The notes below the pieces were generated by a model, which was given only the letters and a program-made list of their open reading frames with translations, ran no database searches and was not told where the DNA came from. Both the position numbers and the translations under genes were made by a program. Positions 16,455-49,741 of a stretch of DNA of 64,000 nucleotides are shown here, piece by piece. The stretch is from Escherichia coli (GTDB lineage: Bacteria; Pseudomonadota; Gammaproteobacteria; Enterobacterales; Enterobacteriaceae), in the NCBI RefSeq assembly GCF_050320075.1, contig NZ_CP190022.1; one strand, given 5' to 3'. How positions within the stretch are numbered: the first letter of the stretch is position 1; every line of letters begins with the position of its first letter.

Positions 16455-18011
16455 TTGTACAGGAAAATGACTGGCGTGTCTTGTATTAAAGAAAAATCAA
16501 AATATACTTTTGAGAGAGCAAAACAGTTTTATTTTATGTTGTGGTGTAAAGAGTCACTGATTTATCTGTTGTTTTCTGTGCTTGTTACATGGTGTTGCGG
16601 ATATACAGTGAAAAACACCCTGGGGAATGTGCTTATATTGTTCCTGATGTTGTTGTTGGGGCGGCAGAATGTTATTTCAGCAACGTGTGTCTGTATCTTT
16701 CTTTTGTTAAGTGCATTCTATGCTCCGGTTGGGATGATTTACGGAAAAATAAACAACAGTTTTATTGCGTCTGTAATGCAGACAAATCTAAATGAGGCAG
16801 GTGAATTTATCACAGGCATACCTGTTCTTTATTTTATTGTTTCACTGATTATTGCTGCTTTTACATTCTGGTTCTGGCGTAAGCGTGATAAAAGCCACCA
16901 GGGATTTATCTTTCTGTTGTTCTTTATCGTATTGTCAGTAAATGCATGGCCAAAACGTATGGTTACGAATGTAATGACAGGGATAGCTGAAACCAGAGAA
17001 GAAATGATGCGATATGAATCGCTGAAACACAATCAGAAAGATTCATGGGATATTGTGAATGTGGAGAAGAAATATAAAACCATAATTATCGTAATTGGTG
17101 AAAGTGTCAGACGGGATTATCTTTCTGTTTATGGGTATCCTTTGCCGACAACACCATGGTTGAATTCTGCTCCGGGTATATTTATTAATGGGTATTTCTC
17201 CGCAGCTCCGAATACGATAGGTTCACTCAGCAGAACACTGACTCTTGATTACACTGAAACAGGTAATCCGGGTAATAATATTGTTACGCTTGCCAGAAAA
17301 GCCGGATATGAGACGTGGTGGATATCAAATCAGGGCTCTTTAGGGCGACATGATACGCTGATTTCTGTCATCGCCGCCAATGCGGATAAGAAATATTTTC
17401 TTAAGGAAGGGAGCTCTTCTTCCCGTCGCATTGATGATGAAGATATGCTTCAGTATGTCAGGGAAGCTGTTAATTCGTCTTCTCCAAAAGTGATTTTCAT
17501 TCATATGCTGGGGTCCCATCCTAATCCCTGTGACAGACTTTTTAATGATGCACAGCCGTTCAGGGAATTATTCGGAAATAAAGTATCCTGTTATTTATCA
17601 ACATTGCTTAAGCTGGATCGGTTTCTTCAGGCAATTTATAACATGACGACAGAGCATGGCGATGATTTTGCCATGCTGTATTTTTCTGATCATGGGCAAT
17701 CCGTCACTTCAGACAGCACCCCTGTGCATCATGCGCCAGGTTTGCGTTCGGGATACGATGTACCTCTCATGATGATGGCCAGTGATATTACTGAGCACCA
17801 CCTCAATCATGTGCATATCAGTGCACGTCGTTTTCCCGAGATTTTTCAATGGATCACAGGGATACAAACCAAAAATCTGCCGTTAAGTTTTTCTTTGTTA
17901 CAGAATGATTTCGCTGAAAGTGTTTCTGTATTCAATGGTGAACGTGACGTTCCGGTAATGTCTTTGCCAGAAGAGCCGATACTGACCGGAAATGCTGAAT
18001 CAGAAAAATAA
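16455..18011 (+). CDS. Phosphoethanolamine-transferase-family (sulfatase-fold) inner membrane protein
   Basis: N-terminal TM helices, then IIIVIGESVRRDYLSVYGY, FIHMLGSHPNP and FSDHGQS motifs resembling EptA/LptA-type enzymes; low GC; exact start uncertain. Confidence 0.6.
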   Translation: MYRKMTGVSCIKEKSKYTFERAKQFYFMLWCKESLIYLLFSVLVTWCCGYTVKNTLGNVLILFLMLLLGRQNVISATCVCIFLLLSAFYAPVGMIYGKINNSFIASVMQTNLNEAGEFITGIPVLYFIVSLIIAAFTFWFWRKRDKSHQGFIFLLFFIVLSVNAWPKRMVTNVMTGIAETREEMMRYESLKHNQKDSWDIVNVEKKYKTIIIVIGESVRRDYLSVYGYPLPTTPWLNSAPGIFINGYFSAAPNTIGSLSRTLTLDYTETGNPGNNIVTLARKAGYETWWISNQGSLGRHDTLISVIAANADKKYFLKEGSSSSRRIDDEDMLQYVREAVNSSSPKVIFIHMLGSHPNPCDRLFNDAQPFRELFGNKVSCYLSTLLKLDRFLQAIYNMTTEHGDDFAMLYFSDHGQSVTSDSTPVHHAPGLRSGYDVPLMMMASDITEHHLNHVHISARRFPEIFQWITGIQTKNLPLSFSLLQNDFAESVSVFNGERDVPVMSLPEEPILTGNAESEK

Positions 18012-18831: not shown

Positions 18832-19087
18832 CGGGCAACATGGCGGCAGGAAATCTGCCGCCGGATTGTTGCGAAAGCAAACCTCAATGCGCCCTTTTTT
18901 ACCTGGATTTCTGCAGCGCGTTTCAGCATAGCATGCAGTTCTGTGCTGATCCTTGCTTCCAGTCGGGCAGTTTGTGTTGCTGATGGCATGATTTGTACTT
19001 CCTGAATACACTGAACGTCAAATTGCCGTATTGTGCTAATTACAGTCTGATACAGGGACGGCAGACAGGCATTCTGCCTGAAAAGAA

Positions 19088-19112
19088 AAAGCCGGTTCAG
19101 AGAAAACCGGCT
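19088..19112 (-). terminator. Rho-independent terminator after excA
   Basis: On the minus strand: gccggttttctctgaaccggc followed by tttttctttt. Confidence 0.45.
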
Positions 19113-19144
19113 GACGGATTATCGTCTAACAGTTGGTCGCTACC

Positions 19145-19795
19145 TTAAAATACTTCTGCAACAGGAACACCGGCAACTTTTTCCCACTCTTTAACCCGAT
19201 ACCGAATCATCTGCGGGAAACGTTCCTTGTACTCATATCCACGTGCAGCCATGGTGTGCATGGTGTTGGCCAGCGTCCTTGATGAGATGCCGGAGATTTC
19301 CAGTGGGATCATCGGCAGACTCACATATGTAGTGTGGATTTCCAGCTTGCCGTCTTCAGCAACCGTGCGGGTAAAGTTGTGAATATCCAGACCAATCACA
19401 TCCATCACATTGTTTGGGTAAATGCGCACATACAGCATGGTGCCGTTTTTAATGTCGATCCCGAAATAACAACTCTTCGAGAATGACAGTTGCTCGTAAT
19501 CGCTGGTCGGCGCAAAGAGACAGCTTTCTTTTATCTGCTTAACAACCTGCTGGATTTTCTTTTTCTTCGCTCTGGTTCTCAGATATAGCCAGAGTGGGGG
19601 AATAAAAAGAAGAAAATAACATCCATATGCCAGAATAAAAAGGCTTGTTGAATTCGTTAGTTTATCATCTAATAAATATGATGTATAAGCTGTTGCGTAT
19701 AAAGCTAAGCACGGAATGCCTAATAAAAAATAAGCGTTGCGGGCCAAGTGGTAATATGCCCACCAGGAAGGATATCTGCTTTTTGTTTTGTTCAT
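19145..19795 (-). CDS. excA: ExcA entry-exclusion inner membrane protein
   Basis: 216 aa with TM helices, immediately downstream of traY as in R64. Confidence 0.6.
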   Translation of the reverse strand: MNKTKSRYPSWWAYYHLARNAYFLLGIPCLALYATAYTSYLLDDKLTNSTSLFILAYGCYFLLFIPPLWLYLRTRAKKKKIQQVVKQIKESCLFAPTSDYEQLSFSKSCYFGIDIKNGTMLYVRIYPNNVMDVIGLDIHNFTRTVAEDGKLEIHTTYVSLPMIPLEISGISSRTLANTMHTMAARGYEYKERFPQMIRYRVKEWEKVAGVPVAEVF

Positions 19796-19883
19796 AATAA
19801 ACCTCCATATTCACCTGAATATATTTTAAACTCTTCAGGTGAATATGGCAATGCTGTTTTATTGGTTTTTCTATGTTTTCATT

Positions 19884-22049
19884 TTATTGTTTTATTCCGT
19901 CTTTATCATCTCTATTAATATTTTTCAGTTTTTCTTCACGAACGCCAGGTGTTCTGCGCATATTGGTATTACCTCCGGCAATAATATCTTTGACTGAAGA
20001 AACCATATTCCCCAGCATATTAACACCGTCACGCCCGCCCAGAAAATTAATTACATGGTCAGGCAGATAAGCCTGAAGTGCAAAAATGGCCGCAACCAGC
20101 GTGGTACAGGCTCGGGCATAAATCATCAAAAATCCCGCCATGCTGAACACGCCCGTCACAGAATTTATCTGGACATTCATCAGCGCAGCAGCAAACAGCG
20201 CATTCAGGATTGTGCCGCCGGCCACGATGGCGACCGATGCAAAAAAGAATCCGAACACCATCAGCAGCGGTCTGATCATGCTGTCTATCAGGTAGATGTA
20301 ACCGTAAGCGGCCCGGCTTCCCCGGTCCTGACTTGTTCCCAGATGGGTGGCGGCCCACAGGGGGCCAGCAGCACATCCAATCAGTACGCTGAGTATCCAG
20401 TTGCCGATGCCGGTCATCCAGAAGATAAACGGAATAAACGGCAGGTAAATGGATAACGAAAAACCGGCACAGAACAGCAAAAACAGCAGGAAGTAGAGCG
20501 GTGGTGCGGATGCTTCCAGAAAAGCCTTTGCGGCGTCAGATAAGCCGCTGACGGCATTGACCAGTCGGCCAAAAACGGAGTTGCTGCCGGCAGTTGAAAG
20601 CACCCTGACGGTGGTATAACCCGCCCAGATGGTTTCGGTTGTGACCATGGTGTAATCACCAATGTTTTTCATTTTTATTAGCGGATTTAGTTGGTCCGAG
20701 GTGGTTCCAGTTCCTGAATGTATGGTTGCAATTTGATTGGTAAATAACGTCAGGTCATTCCCTAGGAGTTTTAACAGGGCTGATTGAGGATTCTGTGTAT
20801 TAGATGCCTGGTATTCACTGGCTGAGGTGGCTGTTCCCAGTGCAGGTGTATATGGTGAGTTTTGCAACTGTGCCTGGTAAGCCCCCTTGACTTCCTTCAG
20901 GAACTCCGTATCCCCGGCTTCGCCCAGTGACGAGACGCCACTCACAGTAGGAGCGCGGTTGGCCAGGTCTTCCAGTCGCTGGTTGGCGGTGGCAAAGGTC
21001 TGGTACCAGGCGCCCAGGGCAACCCAGCCGTAGGTGGTCAGGTAGGATTTCAGCTGCTCCCTGCGCTCAGTTTCTGCGTTATCTGCCGGCAACGCCTTCT
21101 GCACCGTTTCTTCATACCGGTTGGCAGCCTTCTGAATACGGCTTTCAATATCCGGCAGGTTGCCGTTACCCGTGTCGCGTCGGGTCCGGTACGCTGACAC
21201 AAATTCCTGCGCCGCGCTGTCCAGGTCACGGAGCATGGTATCCATGGCGGAGCGCTGTGCCGTCAGAACCCCCTGATATTCCGTTTCAATGAAGGGATTG
21301 AAAAAATGGGCCAGCGCGGACTGCTTGTTACTGCCGTTTCCTTTCACGGAGAGACTCACACTCCCGCAGGTGGCGCTGCCATTTGAGACGGTGACGGTAT
21401 ATCTGCCATTCTCTGTCCGTGAGGATTCGCTCATGGGCGGCGTTGATGAACGTGCGGTACGGTTAAAGTCATCGAGGCCCGTATTCATGGCGTGTTTGCA
21501 CAGTTCCATCTCCAGTATTCCCCGTGCTGCCGTGCGGGTGGAGACATGTACTGGCTGTACGGTCATTGAATAGCCTTCAGCGATGTTTTCTGCCGCTGTC
21601 TGAACCATGATATTGGCGGAACCGATGCCCATGATGGATGCGCCCCACAGCATGACCAGTTGTGCCAGACTCCAGCCGGAAGCGGTGGGCACAATCATCA
21701 TAAAACCGCTCACAATACTGAGCATTCCGACGACGTCCCGTCCGTTGTTAAAGACATTGCCCTGGTGTCCCGTGCGGACAGCATGACGGATACCAATAAA
21801 CAGAAACCAGACTATCCCCATCGTGGCGATAATTGCGTTAAACACCATGAACAGGTTGCCAATGATGGTGTTGCTGCTGGCTGTCAGGGGATTTGTGACC
21901 ACATCACCAAAAATGGTGACCAGTGCCTGGCGCGACAGGTCATCCGGATTGGTGGCGGCACTCACAATGTCCTGATAGGTGACGAAAGCCTGTGCAGGTA
22001 CGGCAGCCAGCGCCAGACCTGCACTCAGTGCTCTGGGTATGATTTTCAC
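19884..22049 (-). CDS. traY: TraY, DotA-like polytopic membrane protein
   Basis: 721 aa; signal peptide and many TM helices; last gene of the tra operon. Confidence 0.7.
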   Translation of the reverse strand: MKIIPRALSAGLALAAVPAQAFVTYQDIVSAATNPDDLSRQALVTIFGDVVTNPLTASSNTIIGNLFMVFNAIIATMGIVWFLFIGIRHAVRTGHQGNVFNNGRDVVGMLSIVSGFMMIVPTASGWSLAQLVMLWGASIMGIGSANIMVQTAAENIAEGYSMTVQPVHVSTRTAARGILEMELCKHAMNTGLDDFNRTARSSTPPMSESSRTENGRYTVTVSNGSATCGSVSLSVKGNGSNKQSALAHFFNPFIETEYQGVLTAQRSAMDTMLRDLDSAAQEFVSAYRTRRDTGNGNLPDIESRIQKAANRYEETVQKALPADNAETERREQLKSYLTTYGWVALGAWYQTFATANQRLEDLANRAPTVSGVSSLGEAGDTEFLKEVKGAYQAQLQNSPYTPALGTATSASEYQASNTQNPQSALLKLLGNDLTLFTNQIATIHSGTGTTSDQLNPLIKMKNIGDYTMVTTETIWAGYTTVRVLSTAGSNSVFGRLVNAVSGLSDAAKAFLEASAPPLYFLLFLLFCAGFSLSIYLPFIPFIFWMTGIGNWILSVLIGCAAGPLWAATHLGTSQDRGSRAAYGYIYLIDSMIRPLLMVFGFFFASVAIVAGGTILNALFAAALMNVQINSVTGVFSMAGFLMIYARACTTLVAAIFALQAYLPDHVINFLGGRDGVNMLGNMVSSVKDIIAGGNTNMRRTPGVREEKLKNINRDDKDGIKQ

Positions 22050-45152: not shown

Positions 45153-46322
45153 TCAGCAAGGGGATGTGAGAATAGTGGTTGATTTTGTCATAAGCTGGTC
45201 GTTTGTTAACGGACAAATCATTACCCGTTCATCAATGTTTGTAGGAAGTTCGCCAGGAGTTGGGACACGCTCTCCTCGCTGGGCGGCTTGTGCCAGTGTT
45301 CGTAGCAGCAACACGCTGGCATGAAATATGGCCTGTTCTTTTGTGGCTGCGCTTGTTTCCAGGTCGAAATCACTCAGAGTCACAACGACTTGCCCGTTTC
45401 TGTTCTCGACCGTTGCCGGGTAGGGAACAAAATAGGGAGCGATTTTGCTGGTTTGCTTGCGTCGGGCATCGAGTTTACTGACAAGTTGATAAGCCCGAAG
45501 GTGTGTGTATCGTTTCAACATGTTCAGGGAGCGATGGCCTGAAATAGCGGCAACTTCAATGACGTTCAATGTACCAAGTTCGAAAAATCGGCTGATAGCC
45601 TCATGACGGAGGTCATGAAAATGCAAGTTTTCTATATTCAGTTCCTGAAGTGCTGTTCGCCAGGCACTTTTGAATCCCGAAGATGTATAAGAAAAAATAT
45701 TACCGTTAAGCTGTATTGGCAGCATTTGCAGGTAACTACGGGCTTTCCTGGATAGCGGAACATCGCGTGGAGCACCATTTTTGGTTGTTGGAAGATGAGC
45801 TACCCCATGTTGCAGATCGACGTGTTCCCAACGCAATGACAAGATTTCACCTTGTCGCATTGCTGTTTCCAGCGCCAGATGAAAAATGACGTAAAGAGCC
45901 TGATTTTTTTCTTTGAAATACCGCGAAAGTCGGCGTTCTTCTCCTGAAGTCAGGCGACGATCGCGCCCGCTACTGATTTTGGGTTTTCTGACCAGTTCGA
46001 CAGGATTCATACGGCATGTTCCCCATTCCACACGGGCGATATTGAATAATGATGATAAAAGGGCAAGTTCAAGACGGACGGTATTTCCGGTGATTTGACG
46101 CCCTGTTCGTGGGTTAATTTGAGCTAAACGCTGATCCCGGTAACCGGCGATATCAATGGTAGTGATTTCATCCATATAGCGCTCGGCCATAGGGTGACGT
46201 TTAATCACATTGACGCGATAAAACTCCTGCAGATGACCTTTTTTATGGACGGAAACGGTTTTCAGGTATTTGTCCAGCGCCCGGTTGAGAGTCATTTTGC
46301 GAATTTTGATTTTTCGAAACAT
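45153..46322 (-). CDS. rci: Rci shufflon-specific tyrosine recombinase
   Basis: Start chosen at [12 protein letters not shown] (389 aa); integrase-family motifs including HDLRHE; adjacent to 19-bp sfx repeats. Confidence 0.8.
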
Positions 46323-46384
46323 ATCTGCCTTCCACGATAAAAACGGGGAAGGTAGGAATAGTGAAACGGAAATGCAATATCGCC

Positions 46385-48758
46385 GTGCCAATCCGGTATC
46401 TGGACAACGACAAAAATGAACTTCACTACCAGTACATACAATATCGGGAAAAATACCGTAATCTGAGCATTGGCGTACATGCGTACTGCTCGTGGACATA
46501 CCTTAATGGCTCGCCTTTTGGTGGTTTTCAGCAGATATACGCCGACCAAAACAAGGTTTGGTATGTGAATAATTATGCGTGGGGAAATTATGAGTCCGGT
46601 GGCACAATTACAGTGACATGCCTCAACCTTCCTGGTGCCGGAATCTAACCAAAAGGGCAACAGTAAGCATCGACGTGCTCTTCATCAACACCATCTCCGA
46701 TGCCGTACATTCTTGTACCTGTCATGACGTACCCGGCAGGGCACTGAATCGGCTTGTAATAAATAGAACCTCCACTTCTGCCACCGATAAAATGTGCGGA
46801 GGTCGCTTCATACCATTTACAGGCAGAATAGTTCACTTTATTGCCTCCAAGCCACAAACCGGATTGGCACTGGCCTCCGTGCCAATCCGGTTCGTGGACA
46901 AGTAGCCAAAAGAAAGAACGTTTCACGGTATACGGAATAAGTGGATGTGGGCATACACCGTCCTATGCGGTATGTCCTGATGGCAGTGATTTAGTTTCTG
47001 GTGGGTATCAGTTAACGGCTTGGTCCCAGGATAACCGGAACCCGTTTAACTCACCAGACTCAAGTTACCCAGACTGGAATAATAAACGTTGGGTTGTCGG
47101 AGGTACCGGAACTATCACGAGCTGTTTCCGCTCAGTAGCTGTATGTGCCAGATAATGTGCGACAGAGCTTTCAACGGAAACAGTGAACAGTGATGTAATA
47201 GCTGCTATACAATGTGCCATTGTACGCACTCCAATTCATCTCGCCGTTTACATCTGGATTATCTGTCGGCCAGACTCTTGTCATTGCAGTTTCCTTTCCG
47301 TCTATACGATATGTATTAACGCAAAGTTTGAATTTTCCCAGAGCCTTCGTTGTGGTTGGGTACAAGGTGAAGGATGTTACTGATGTCCACGGCGCAGCAG
47401 AACCGATTGATTTCCACGAACCGGATTGGCACTGGCCTCCGTGCCAATCCGGTTCGTGGAAAAATGCAGGAAAAGGCGATATTGAAATCGTCAAAGTAAC
47501 AGCATCAAAACTCCGCTGGCCTGGTGCTACTGCCACCTGCCCAATGGGTAAGAAGGTGATCGGGGGTGGTGCAGAATGCAGCTCTGGAATTGGCTTTATC
47601 TGGCTTGTCCGTTCAATACCTGTAAACAATAATGCCTGGTATGGCTATTGCGATACGACAGAACACATCATTGGAAAAATAACTGTACATGCCATTTGCC
47701 AATGACAAAGTGATTTACTGGCAAACCACAATGTAACTACATTTCCCCGTCAGGTCGTTCCTGTTTGTACCGCCGTGAAAATTGTATTCATCGTAGTAAC
47801 CACACTTCACAATCCTGTTCGAATCATATGTCGCAACAGAACCTGCGAAGTAATTTGGCTTCCAGCCATGCGGGTTTTCAGCATTGCTGACGCTCCAGGT
47901 ACACTGGCTGGCAGAAAAACCAGACGGCAAAGGTAGTCGTTCTCCATTTGCGATTTTTCCTGTCAGAACAGTGCTACCTGATACCCTAATCCACGAACCG
48001 GATTGGCACTGGCCTCCGTGCCAATCCGGTGTGTGGGTTGGCTTTGAATCGGACCCTGTGGGAAGCCCTATCCCGTGGCCATCTGCCACTCCTCCACAAG
48101 GCTATCTGTTGATGAACGGCCAGTCGTTTTCCTGTTCCCGGTATCCTCAGCTTGCCCGTGCTTATCCTGGCTGTAAATTGCCCGATCTGCGCGGTGTTTT
48201 TATCCGTGGCTGGGATAACGGGAAGGGACTTGCATGGTGATCCACAGACAACTCCTGGTTATCAGGCCGATCAATCAGGCGTCTATCACGAACGTGGCGG
48301 ATGGCTGAAAGGGCATCATAGTTATGCCATACTGGGCACAGGGGAGTACCACATGTGAAATGCGTCCCAAAAATATTGCATTCAACTACATTGTTAAAGC
48401 CAGCTAGGGACTCACATCTGATAGGCATACACAGATAACACCGTTACCACAGGCGTAAATTTTGTGTTGGTCTGGAGATGATTTGATATGACGCTCCCAC
48501 TGGCACGGCAAATGAAATAAATGCTGTCTTTCCGTAGGAGGGGTTATTGCTGGCATTCATACCAATGAAAGCGCCGTTCACATAGCCCTGAAGATTTGAT
48601 GTGTTGGCGCAATCACCGCCACCGGCACCATTTCCACCGGAAGCGTACACAAACAAAGCCTGCCGTTATTTCTCCCGTTAAATGTTCCCCGGTGAGAACC
48701 CAGATTGCTGTAACTTCCGTCAGGTGCACCAATCGTTCGCCACACACCGGATTGGCAC
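46385..48758. mobile_element. Shufflon: four invertible segments bounded by 19-bp sfx repeats, carrying alternative PilV C-terminal ends on both strands
   Basis: sfx copies gtgccaatccgg(t/g)(a/t/g)(t/c)(c/g)tgg at about 46385, 46879, 47441, 48018 and inverted copies at about 46851, 47414, 47991, 48740; track ORFs on both strands begin with the repeat-encoded HEPDWHWPPCQSG / PDWHGGQCQSG. Confidence 0.8.
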
Positions 48759-49741
48759 GAAAGTATTGCCCCTTTACTGTCGCGGCCTACAAGTCCGTCC
48801 GGTGAGCAGGAAGTACCTGCGGTGGCTGTTTTTTCCAGCTGTAAATACTCACCTGTGGAAAGACGACCGTCAGACCGGACAGTTCCACCACTGACTTTTC
48901 CTCCTTTGAGCTCTCCTTCGGTTGTGATCCCTTTGTTGTTAACAGCACGTATCCATTCGCTGTCCGTCATGGTGAAACCGCCTCCGTGCGTCGTGTTCAT
49001 CCACCCCTTGTTGTTTCTGGTGATAAACCAGCCGTCTTCGCTGGTTATATCGCCTTTCACCGTGGCTTTCTGACCATTGAGGTTACCGGCGTTATTGATG
49101 TCATTTCCGCCCATGTTGATAGCTGTGTGCATCTGGTTCAGCTCTGGTCTCTCCGGGACCTGGAAACGATACAACCTGTCGCTTTCCTGCAGATCATCAC
49201 CCGTCATGACGACGGCAATGTGACCTGCCGAACAGGTGAGTCCGTAATCCCCCGGTTTGTCTGTCCAGGCGCCGAATGCGCCGGTTGCTGTTCCGTTTTT
49301 ACCAATATAACCACCCAGCCCGGGAAGCTGTCCTGCCACACTGCGCAGACCATCTTCTTTGATATTCTGCCCCCCTGTTGAGCAGGTCAGGGCTTCAAGA
49401 CGTCCTGTAGTCTGGTTACGGCGGATACCCGTGATATAACTCTGCCCAAACGGAGAATGATTAAATCCCTGTTTCAGGTATCCCTTGCGAATCAAATCAT
49501 CGGCTGTAAAGTTTGCCGGAAGGCTGCCGTTGTGCAGAGTGGCATTGTTATCGGCAATGTAATTTCTGGCTGCGGTATTGTAGGCATCTGCATGAGAAGC
49601 AGCACTCTGGTAAAGCTGTTCATTCAGCCAGTTTTCTATTTCGGAATAAATCAGCGGCGTGGCGATACCAATCACTATCAGTCCCGCCAGTATTTCAAGC
49701 AGAATAAAACCTTTGTCGTCATCGTGTCTGAACTTTTTCAC
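48578..49741 (-). CDS. pilV: PilV thin-pilus tip adhesin (prepilin-like) in its current shufflon configuration
   Basis: Prepilin-type N-terminus KGFILLEILAGLIVIGIA; constant region ends at the sfx at 48740 and continues into the adjacent segment; GTGA overlap with pilU. Confidence 0.75.
   Translation of the reverse strand: MKKFRHDDDKGFILLEILAGLIVIGIATPLIYSEIENWLNEQLYQSAASHADAYNTAARNYIADNNATLHNGSLPANFTADDLIRKGYLKQGFNHSPFGQSYITGIRRNQTTGRLEALTCSTGGQNIKEDGLRSVAGQLPGLGGYIGKNGTATGAFGAWTDKPGDYGLTCSAGHIAVVMTGDDLQESDRLYRFQVPERPELNQMHTAINMGGNDINNAGNLNGQKATVKGDITSEDGWFITRNNKGWMNTTHGGGFTMTDSEWIRAVNNKGITTEGELKGGKVSGGTVRSDGRLSTGEYLQLEKTATAGTSCSPDGLVGRDSKGAILSCQSGVWRTIGAPDGSYSNLGSHRGTFNGRNNGRLCLCTLPVEMVPVAVIAPTHQIFRAM

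Follow-up and report, generated by a model that had tools for sequence, protein, structure and literature searches.

Shufflons of the R64 type are DNA inversion systems in which the recombinase Rci recombines inverted pairs of sfx repeats, inverting one or several segments, and the PilV protein is the tip adhesin of the thin pilus, which recognises the lipopolysaccharide of the recipient in liquid mating (PMC5350095, PMC5430464). According to literature cited in PMC5350095, the selected tail is known to set recipient specificity in liquid mating for R64 and pCT; the R64 Rci/sfx system itself was reviewed by Komano in 1999, as cited in the same source. In IncK2 plasmids, the number of repeats described per shufflon ranges from two to eight, the repeats being of types e, f, g and h, and eight-repeat forms are among those described (Seiffert et al. 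2017, PMC5350095). A shufflon is also heterogeneous even in a single clone; long-read assemblers are documented to assemble such loci wrongly, and polishing tools are disturbed by them (PMC5430464). Sekizuka et al. (2017, PMC5430464) found mis-assembled shufflons in IncI2 plasmids assembled from long reads, and Brouwer et al. (2015), as cited in PMC5350095 and PMC5430464, in IncI1 plasmids assembled from NGS data.

The window analysed here, a stretch of 64,000 nt from an Escherichia coli contig (NZ_CP190022.1), contained eight 19-bp sfx repeats with a common GTGCCAATCCGGTnnnTGG between positions 46385 and 48758, four in each orientation. They bounded four segments of 486, 554, 569 and 741 bp (Table 1), and three junctions consisted of back-to-back inverted sfx pairs with the 8-bp spacer TGGCCTCC. 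A preliminary description of this DNA had placed the eight repeats and the four invertible segments correctly; its spacer of 9 bp was one nucleotide too long because the first G of the following repeat had been counted. When read in the TGC CAA TCC GGT frame, all eight sfx encoded CQSGxW, each opening a reading frame into its segment. The repeats belonged to types e (tcg), f (atc), g (gtg) and h (ttg), with segment pairings e/e, e/e, g/g and h/f, and their order from rci to pilV was f-h-e-e-e-e-g-g, with a PilVA-type tail joined to pilV. Inverted sfx repeats, an adjacent rci and a pilV constant region ending at an sfx were all present, as in R64-type Rci/sfx systems, and the locus is a standard Rci/sfx shufflon of an IncK2/Z (I-complex) conjugative plasmid. 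Since the repeat order and types fitted published IncK2 shufflons, the eight-repeat, four-segment layout was already known.

Table 1. Positions of the shufflon features and of the sequence differences in the window
Feature	Position	Strand	Remarks
sfx repeats, starts	46385, 46879, 47441, 48018	+	
sfx repeats, inverted copies, ends	46870, 47432, 48009, 48758		
sfx type f	46385..46403	+	GTGCCAATCCGGTATCTGG; rci-proximal shufflon end; repeat naming per PMC5350095
sfx type h	46852..46870	-	
sfx type g	48740..48758	-	Junction of the pilV constant region and segment 4
Segment 1	46385..46870		486 bp (487 in relatives); homologous to R64 segment L007 3741-4233 (NC_005014)
Segment 2	46879..47432		554 bp; e/e repeats; both tails intact; 100% identical to p1106
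Segment 3	47441..48009		569 bp; e/e repeats; both tails intact; 100% identical to p1106
Segment 4	48018..48758		741 bp (747 in relatives); g/g repeats; joined to pilV at present
rci	45153..46322	-	Shufflon-specific tyrosine recombinase, 389 aa, intact; Pfam Phage_integrase PF00589, E=1e-24
pilV as readable	48578..49741	-	387 aa; ends ...LCLCTLPVEMVPVAVIAPTHQIFRAM
pilV constant region	49741-48759	-	Shufflon_N, Pfam PF04917, E=1e-108
Alternative-frame ORF	48656..48444	-	FVYASGG...TQNLRLW
1-nt deletion, segment 1	46456/46457		Relatives AAAAATAC[T]CGTAATC; frameshifts the plus-strand tail, 26 residues instead of the normal 87
Seven-indel cluster, segment 4	48233..48457		+C 48233, -GG 48242, -A 48257, -GG 48322, +TGT 48354, -AG 48432, +A 48457
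4-nt deletion and C/T change, segment 4	48658/48659		Intact relatives AAAGTTCCTCTGCC, window AAAGCCTGCC
Substitutions, segment 4	48051-48052; 48233..48457; 48658/48659		GG/CT (separate); C/A and T/A (within the cluster); C/T

The region matched IncK2/Z plasmids of E. coli. The closest of them, p1106-IncFII (NZ_MG825371.1; p1106), was ~99.95% identical over the part of the window from ~33 kb to 64 kb and showed the same pil/tra gene order; pil and tra genes flank the shufflon, as seen in this collinear relative. The eight-repeat shufflon of the IncK2 plasmids pDV10, pDV45 and pTMSA1088, and that of p1106, shared with the window the segments, repeat types, spacers, rci and pilV. The published order of pDV10 is g-g-e-e-e-e-h-f, and that of the window is its whole-shufflon inversion; the reading direction of PMC5350095, from rci to pilV, was checked against pTMSA1088 and pDV45. 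In comparison with p1106, segments 2 and 3 were inverted as a block yet unchanged in sequence and segment 1 was inverted too, which is the expected footprint of Rci activity. These near-identical plasmids differing in segment order and orientation, with breakpoints at sfx, indicate that the segments of this lineage invert. The rci gene was collinear with a CDS of p1106 annotated as 'site-specific integrase', within an 11.4-kb stretch that presented one mismatch and no gaps, and a CDS of this name adjoins the shufflon in both p1106 and R64. In the program-made ORF list, rci appeared as a 448-aa frame (45153-46499, minus strand) running upstream into segment 1, while the start matching the relatives lies at 46322 and gives 389 aa; the additional residues arise from the way segment 1 is oriented at present and do not belong to the gene. 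In the backbone, a 518-aa ORF at 16455-18011 (plus strand) was collinear with a p1106 CDS annotated as 'phosphoethanolamine transferase'.

Rci would be expected to act on any two inverted 19-bp sfx sites, so that the four segments would invert singly or in blocks. Each inversion would join one of the eight C-terminal tails in frame to the constant region of PilV, at the sfx-encoded CQSGxW, and by analogy the exchange of tails may change recipient specificity in liquid mating. We named the tails by alignment to those extracted from the R64 record, together with PGAP product names, whereas an NCBIfam scan of the eight tails produced no match to any model. For this comparison, the seven R64 tails were taken from NC_005014 (region compared, L007 3208-5144), and the intact p1106 versions were used where the window tail was broken. 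Six tails had an R64 homologue, as measured by identical positions after CQSGxW: the plus- and minus-strand tails of segment 1 corresponded to R4 (66/81) and R3 (57/70), the minus-strand tail of segment 2 to R1 (46/80), those of segment 3 to R2 (plus strand, 44/81) and R5 (minus strand, 73/93) and the minus-strand tail of segment 4 to R7, the 117-aa PilVA-type tail (77/111). The R64 counterpart of segment 1 carries the PGAP name shufflon protein C, and the minus-strand tail of this segment was intact here (74 aa). In segment 2 the R1-like tail measured 86 aa, and in segment 3 the plus-strand tail (87 aa) was B-like and the minus-strand tail (97 aa) D'-like. The plus-strand tails of segment 2 (91 aa) and segment 4 (129 aa) had no counterpart among the seven R64 tails. 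The first of these is cysteine-rich (CQSGSWTSSQKKERFTVYGISGCGH...).

Besides these six homologous tails, the locus had in common with R64 (IncI1) the 7-bp core and 12-bp arm of the sfx, the CQSGxW junction, the Rci tyrosine recombinase, the Shufflon_N constant region of PilV and the thin-pilus operon context. It differed from R64, which has seven repeats and seven tails, by carrying eight of each. Moreover, the B-like and D'-like tails lay on one segment and the R1-like and 91-aa tails on another, while R64 pairs its tails otherwise, and therefore segments have been reassorted between IncI1 and IncK2 shufflons. The R64 tail R6 (+1571 in the R64 shufflon; presumably A') was absent, and a phage-tail-collar tail was found in its place. 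This tail occupies the plus strand of segment 4, opposite to the PilVA-type tail on the minus strand, and both were broken by indels in the window. In the relatives, the opposite-strand tail measures 129 aa and matched the phage tail collar family (PF07484, E=2e-13), but in the window it stopped after 73 residues. The intact 129-aa tail (48018-48407 in the window, plus strand) was 42-47% identical to the C-terminal ends of phage tail fibres, the phages concerned having Aeromonas, Klebsiella, Vibrio and E. coli as hosts. One other locus is reported to encode a PilV-tail-collar fusion (Milman et al. 2023, PMC9881135).

In the arrangement deposited, the constant region of pilV was followed by an aberrant 59-aa tail. 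For its first 33 residues, up to ...GRNNGR (27 of them after CQSGVW), this tail did not differ from that of intact IncK2 relatives; beyond them it diverged. Alignment with pEGY2, pNDM-T2 and p1106 placed the break at the 4-nt deletion (Table 1). Only the first 33 residues aligned with functional PilVA-type C-termini (117 aa in R64, 116 aa in IncK2), and the positions shared with the R64 tail after CQSGxW fell from 77/111 for the intact IncK2 tail to 25/111 for that of the window. Because the in-frame tail matched no functional C-terminus beyond these 33 residues, the claim of the preliminary description that the joined pilV tail is frameshifted stands, and the ORF 49741..48578 does end as quoted there. 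The frameshift, which had been located near 48650, is real in the deposited sequence; its position is 48658/48659 and it is not the sole one. Similarly, the alternative frame that had been proposed as a PilV-like end did encode the continuation of the intact tail (GTLFVYASGGNGAGGGDCANTS...) and aligned with a known functional tail, but ...TQNLRLW is not the natural end, since an insertion of one nucleotide at 48457 and a deletion of two at 48432 shift this frame twice before the true end ...YACGNGVFSVYAYQM. The earlier interpretation was thus supported but incomplete, as nine indels in two segments were found rather than one, so that the ORF would not be regained by repairing one site alone. 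The out-of-frame pieces together cover the homologous tail, which is all that speaks for its expression through programmed ribosomal frameshifting or another form of recoding. Such recoding would require three successive shifts (-4, +1 and -2 nt) at sites without a slippery sequence, and these sites are absent from all relatives, whose tail lies in a single frame; we regard it as extremely improbable.

Segment 4 differed from its relatives by eight indels and four substitution events. Its PilVA-type ORF was hit by three indels, those just mentioned, and its opposite-strand ORF was broken by five. Together with the single-nucleotide deletion in segment 1, these nine indels account for the lower lengths of both segments (741 vs 747 bp and 486 vs 487 bp) and broke three of the eight tails in the record, all three intact in the IncK2 plasmids and p1106; full-length tails thus numbered 5/8 in the window and 8/8 in p1106. 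The rci gene, the eight sfx sites, the pilV constant region and five tails were intact as read, and all eight tails would be usable if the indels were errors. In contrast to segments 1 and 4, the 28.6 kb of flanking backbone nearest the shufflon presented nine substitutions and no indels relative to p1106, and segments 2 and 3 (1.1 kb) showed no differences at all. Nine indels in 1,227 bp (segments 1 and 4) versus none in 29.8 kb was highly significant (Fisher p=2e-13), and the 12 differences observed in segment 4 compared with 0.23 expected at the backbone rate (Poisson P=4e-17). Poor sequence quality throughout the window was rejected as a cause, the ~28.6 kb nearest the shufflon being free of indels. 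Elsewhere in the window, indels were located in naturally divergent stretches (30-120 substitutions per kb) or at a few isolated sites. One such stretch at ~19000-21900, together with smaller patches around 23000 and 28000, carried ~50-120 substitutions per kb relative to p1106, with compensating indels, the surrounding backbone being nearly identical. Judged from collinearity, the surface-exclusion gene excA and a part of traY lie in this divergent DNA, and the pattern suggests allelic replacement by recombination.

Database comparisons gave a similar picture of the two affected segments. For segment 4, 303 records in PLSDB and 209 among the RefSeq complete E. coli genomes matched at 95-99%, and none in either collection at 99% or more. 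The 52 matches listed for this segment were all 97.1-97.2% identical and 709 bp long, compared with 703 bp in the window; the 40 of them that came from PLSDB had almost identical scores. Segment 1 matched 97 PLSDB records at 99% or more, and the 12 records listed all had the extra base (449 vs 448 bp), none being identical to the window. Metagenome contigs were scanned with a pattern that accepted either version of the 48658 site, and 17 out of 17 carried the intact TTCCT, their whole segment showing 0-4 substitutions and no gaps relative to p1106. Natural variation of segment 4 is very small and consists of substitutions only. At the protein level, the exact 387-aa PilV was found on one 77-kb contig (WP_427880809.1 / XTM19495.1), while one intact 444-aa form was found on 156 contigs. 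These data bear on the idea of a naturally inactive segment, raised in the preliminary description, under which the lack of activity of segment 4 as now oriented would be a feature of the lineage. A precedent exists in the D segment of R64, which has an ORF in one direction only (seven tails from four segments). However, every IncK2 relative examined encodes both the PilVA-type tail (116 aa) and the opposite-strand tail (129 aa) in full, and PilV fused to the segment 4 tail, a 444-aa protein by annotation, occurs on more than 150 contigs. We therefore rejected natural inactivity, to which we give almost no credence.

Of the causes put forward in the preliminary description, a sequencing error was best supported, the indels being unique, localised and several per ORF. 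On these sequence comparisons, the nine indels are probably consensus or assembly errors that originated from mixed shufflon orientations in the sequenced culture. If the culture contained mixed arrangements, reads from other isoforms would disturb consensus calling or polishing, and the resulting errors would be limited to the invertible segments; that they are errors, and how they arose, is what we infer rather than read from the data. In the IncI1 and IncI2 mis-assemblies, as here, the defects were confined to the shufflon and the rest of the plasmid assembly was clean, and they were attributed to mixed arrangements within one clone (PMC5430464, and Brouwer et al. 2015 as cited). Those reports concern segments that were missing or replaced, whereas here all segments were present and carried small scattered indels of presumed origin. 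The indels themselves lay mostly outside homopolymers and bore no recognisable platform signature, and inspection by eye for a methylation-motif or homopolymer error signature revealed no consistent pattern. When the intact segment 4 was aligned with its own reverse complement using long-read-like scoring, the gaps showed no clear correspondence to the indel sites, nor were these sites arranged in a convincing mirror symmetry. Segments 2 and 3 are error-free though equally invertible, which the mixture model alone does not explain.

The indels could instead be real mutations, which would make true pseudogenes of segment 4, with both its tails, and of one segment 1 tail. The cell would then produce a PilV with an aberrant 59-aa tail, without adhesin function until another segment was switched in. 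The deposited sequence does read so, and the 387-aa product was accepted by PGAP. IncK2 and IncI2 plasmids also commonly lose shufflon segments (PMC5350095, PMC5430464), so that tails are dispensable, and as five other tails are intact the cost of a real loss would be small. Against this, 12 changes accumulated in 741 bp compared with nine substitutions and no indels in 28.6 kb (P ~4e-17), and they were dominated by indels (eight, with four substitution events) where natural variants of segment 4 carry substitutions only. The indels were shared by no record among the matches listed, nor by any of the 17 metagenome contigs. Furthermore, each ORF received three to five hits where one would suffice; three and five hits per ORF are unlike selection, for which one is enough, and unlike neutral decay, whose rate is far too low. 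Real mutation of this kind is accordingly unlikely. A localised, indel-biased process, such as error-prone processing of failed Rci recombination intermediates, would also make the indels real and would mean that three adhesin tails had been silenced with the rest of the plasmid unchanged; we consider it more doubtful still.

The biological weight of the finding is small, the locus being a multiple-inversion switch of the textbook kind on a plasmid of a well-studied group. The truncated 387-aa PilV nevertheless holds its own RefSeq accession, WP_427880809.1, under a normal product name, so that protein databases now list a probable artefact as a sequence in its own right. Altogether, frameshifts inside the shufflon segments of deposited IncI-complex plasmids should be treated as suspect until the reads have been checked, a caution that concerns comparisons of PilV repertoires, pseudogene counts and the inference of host range.
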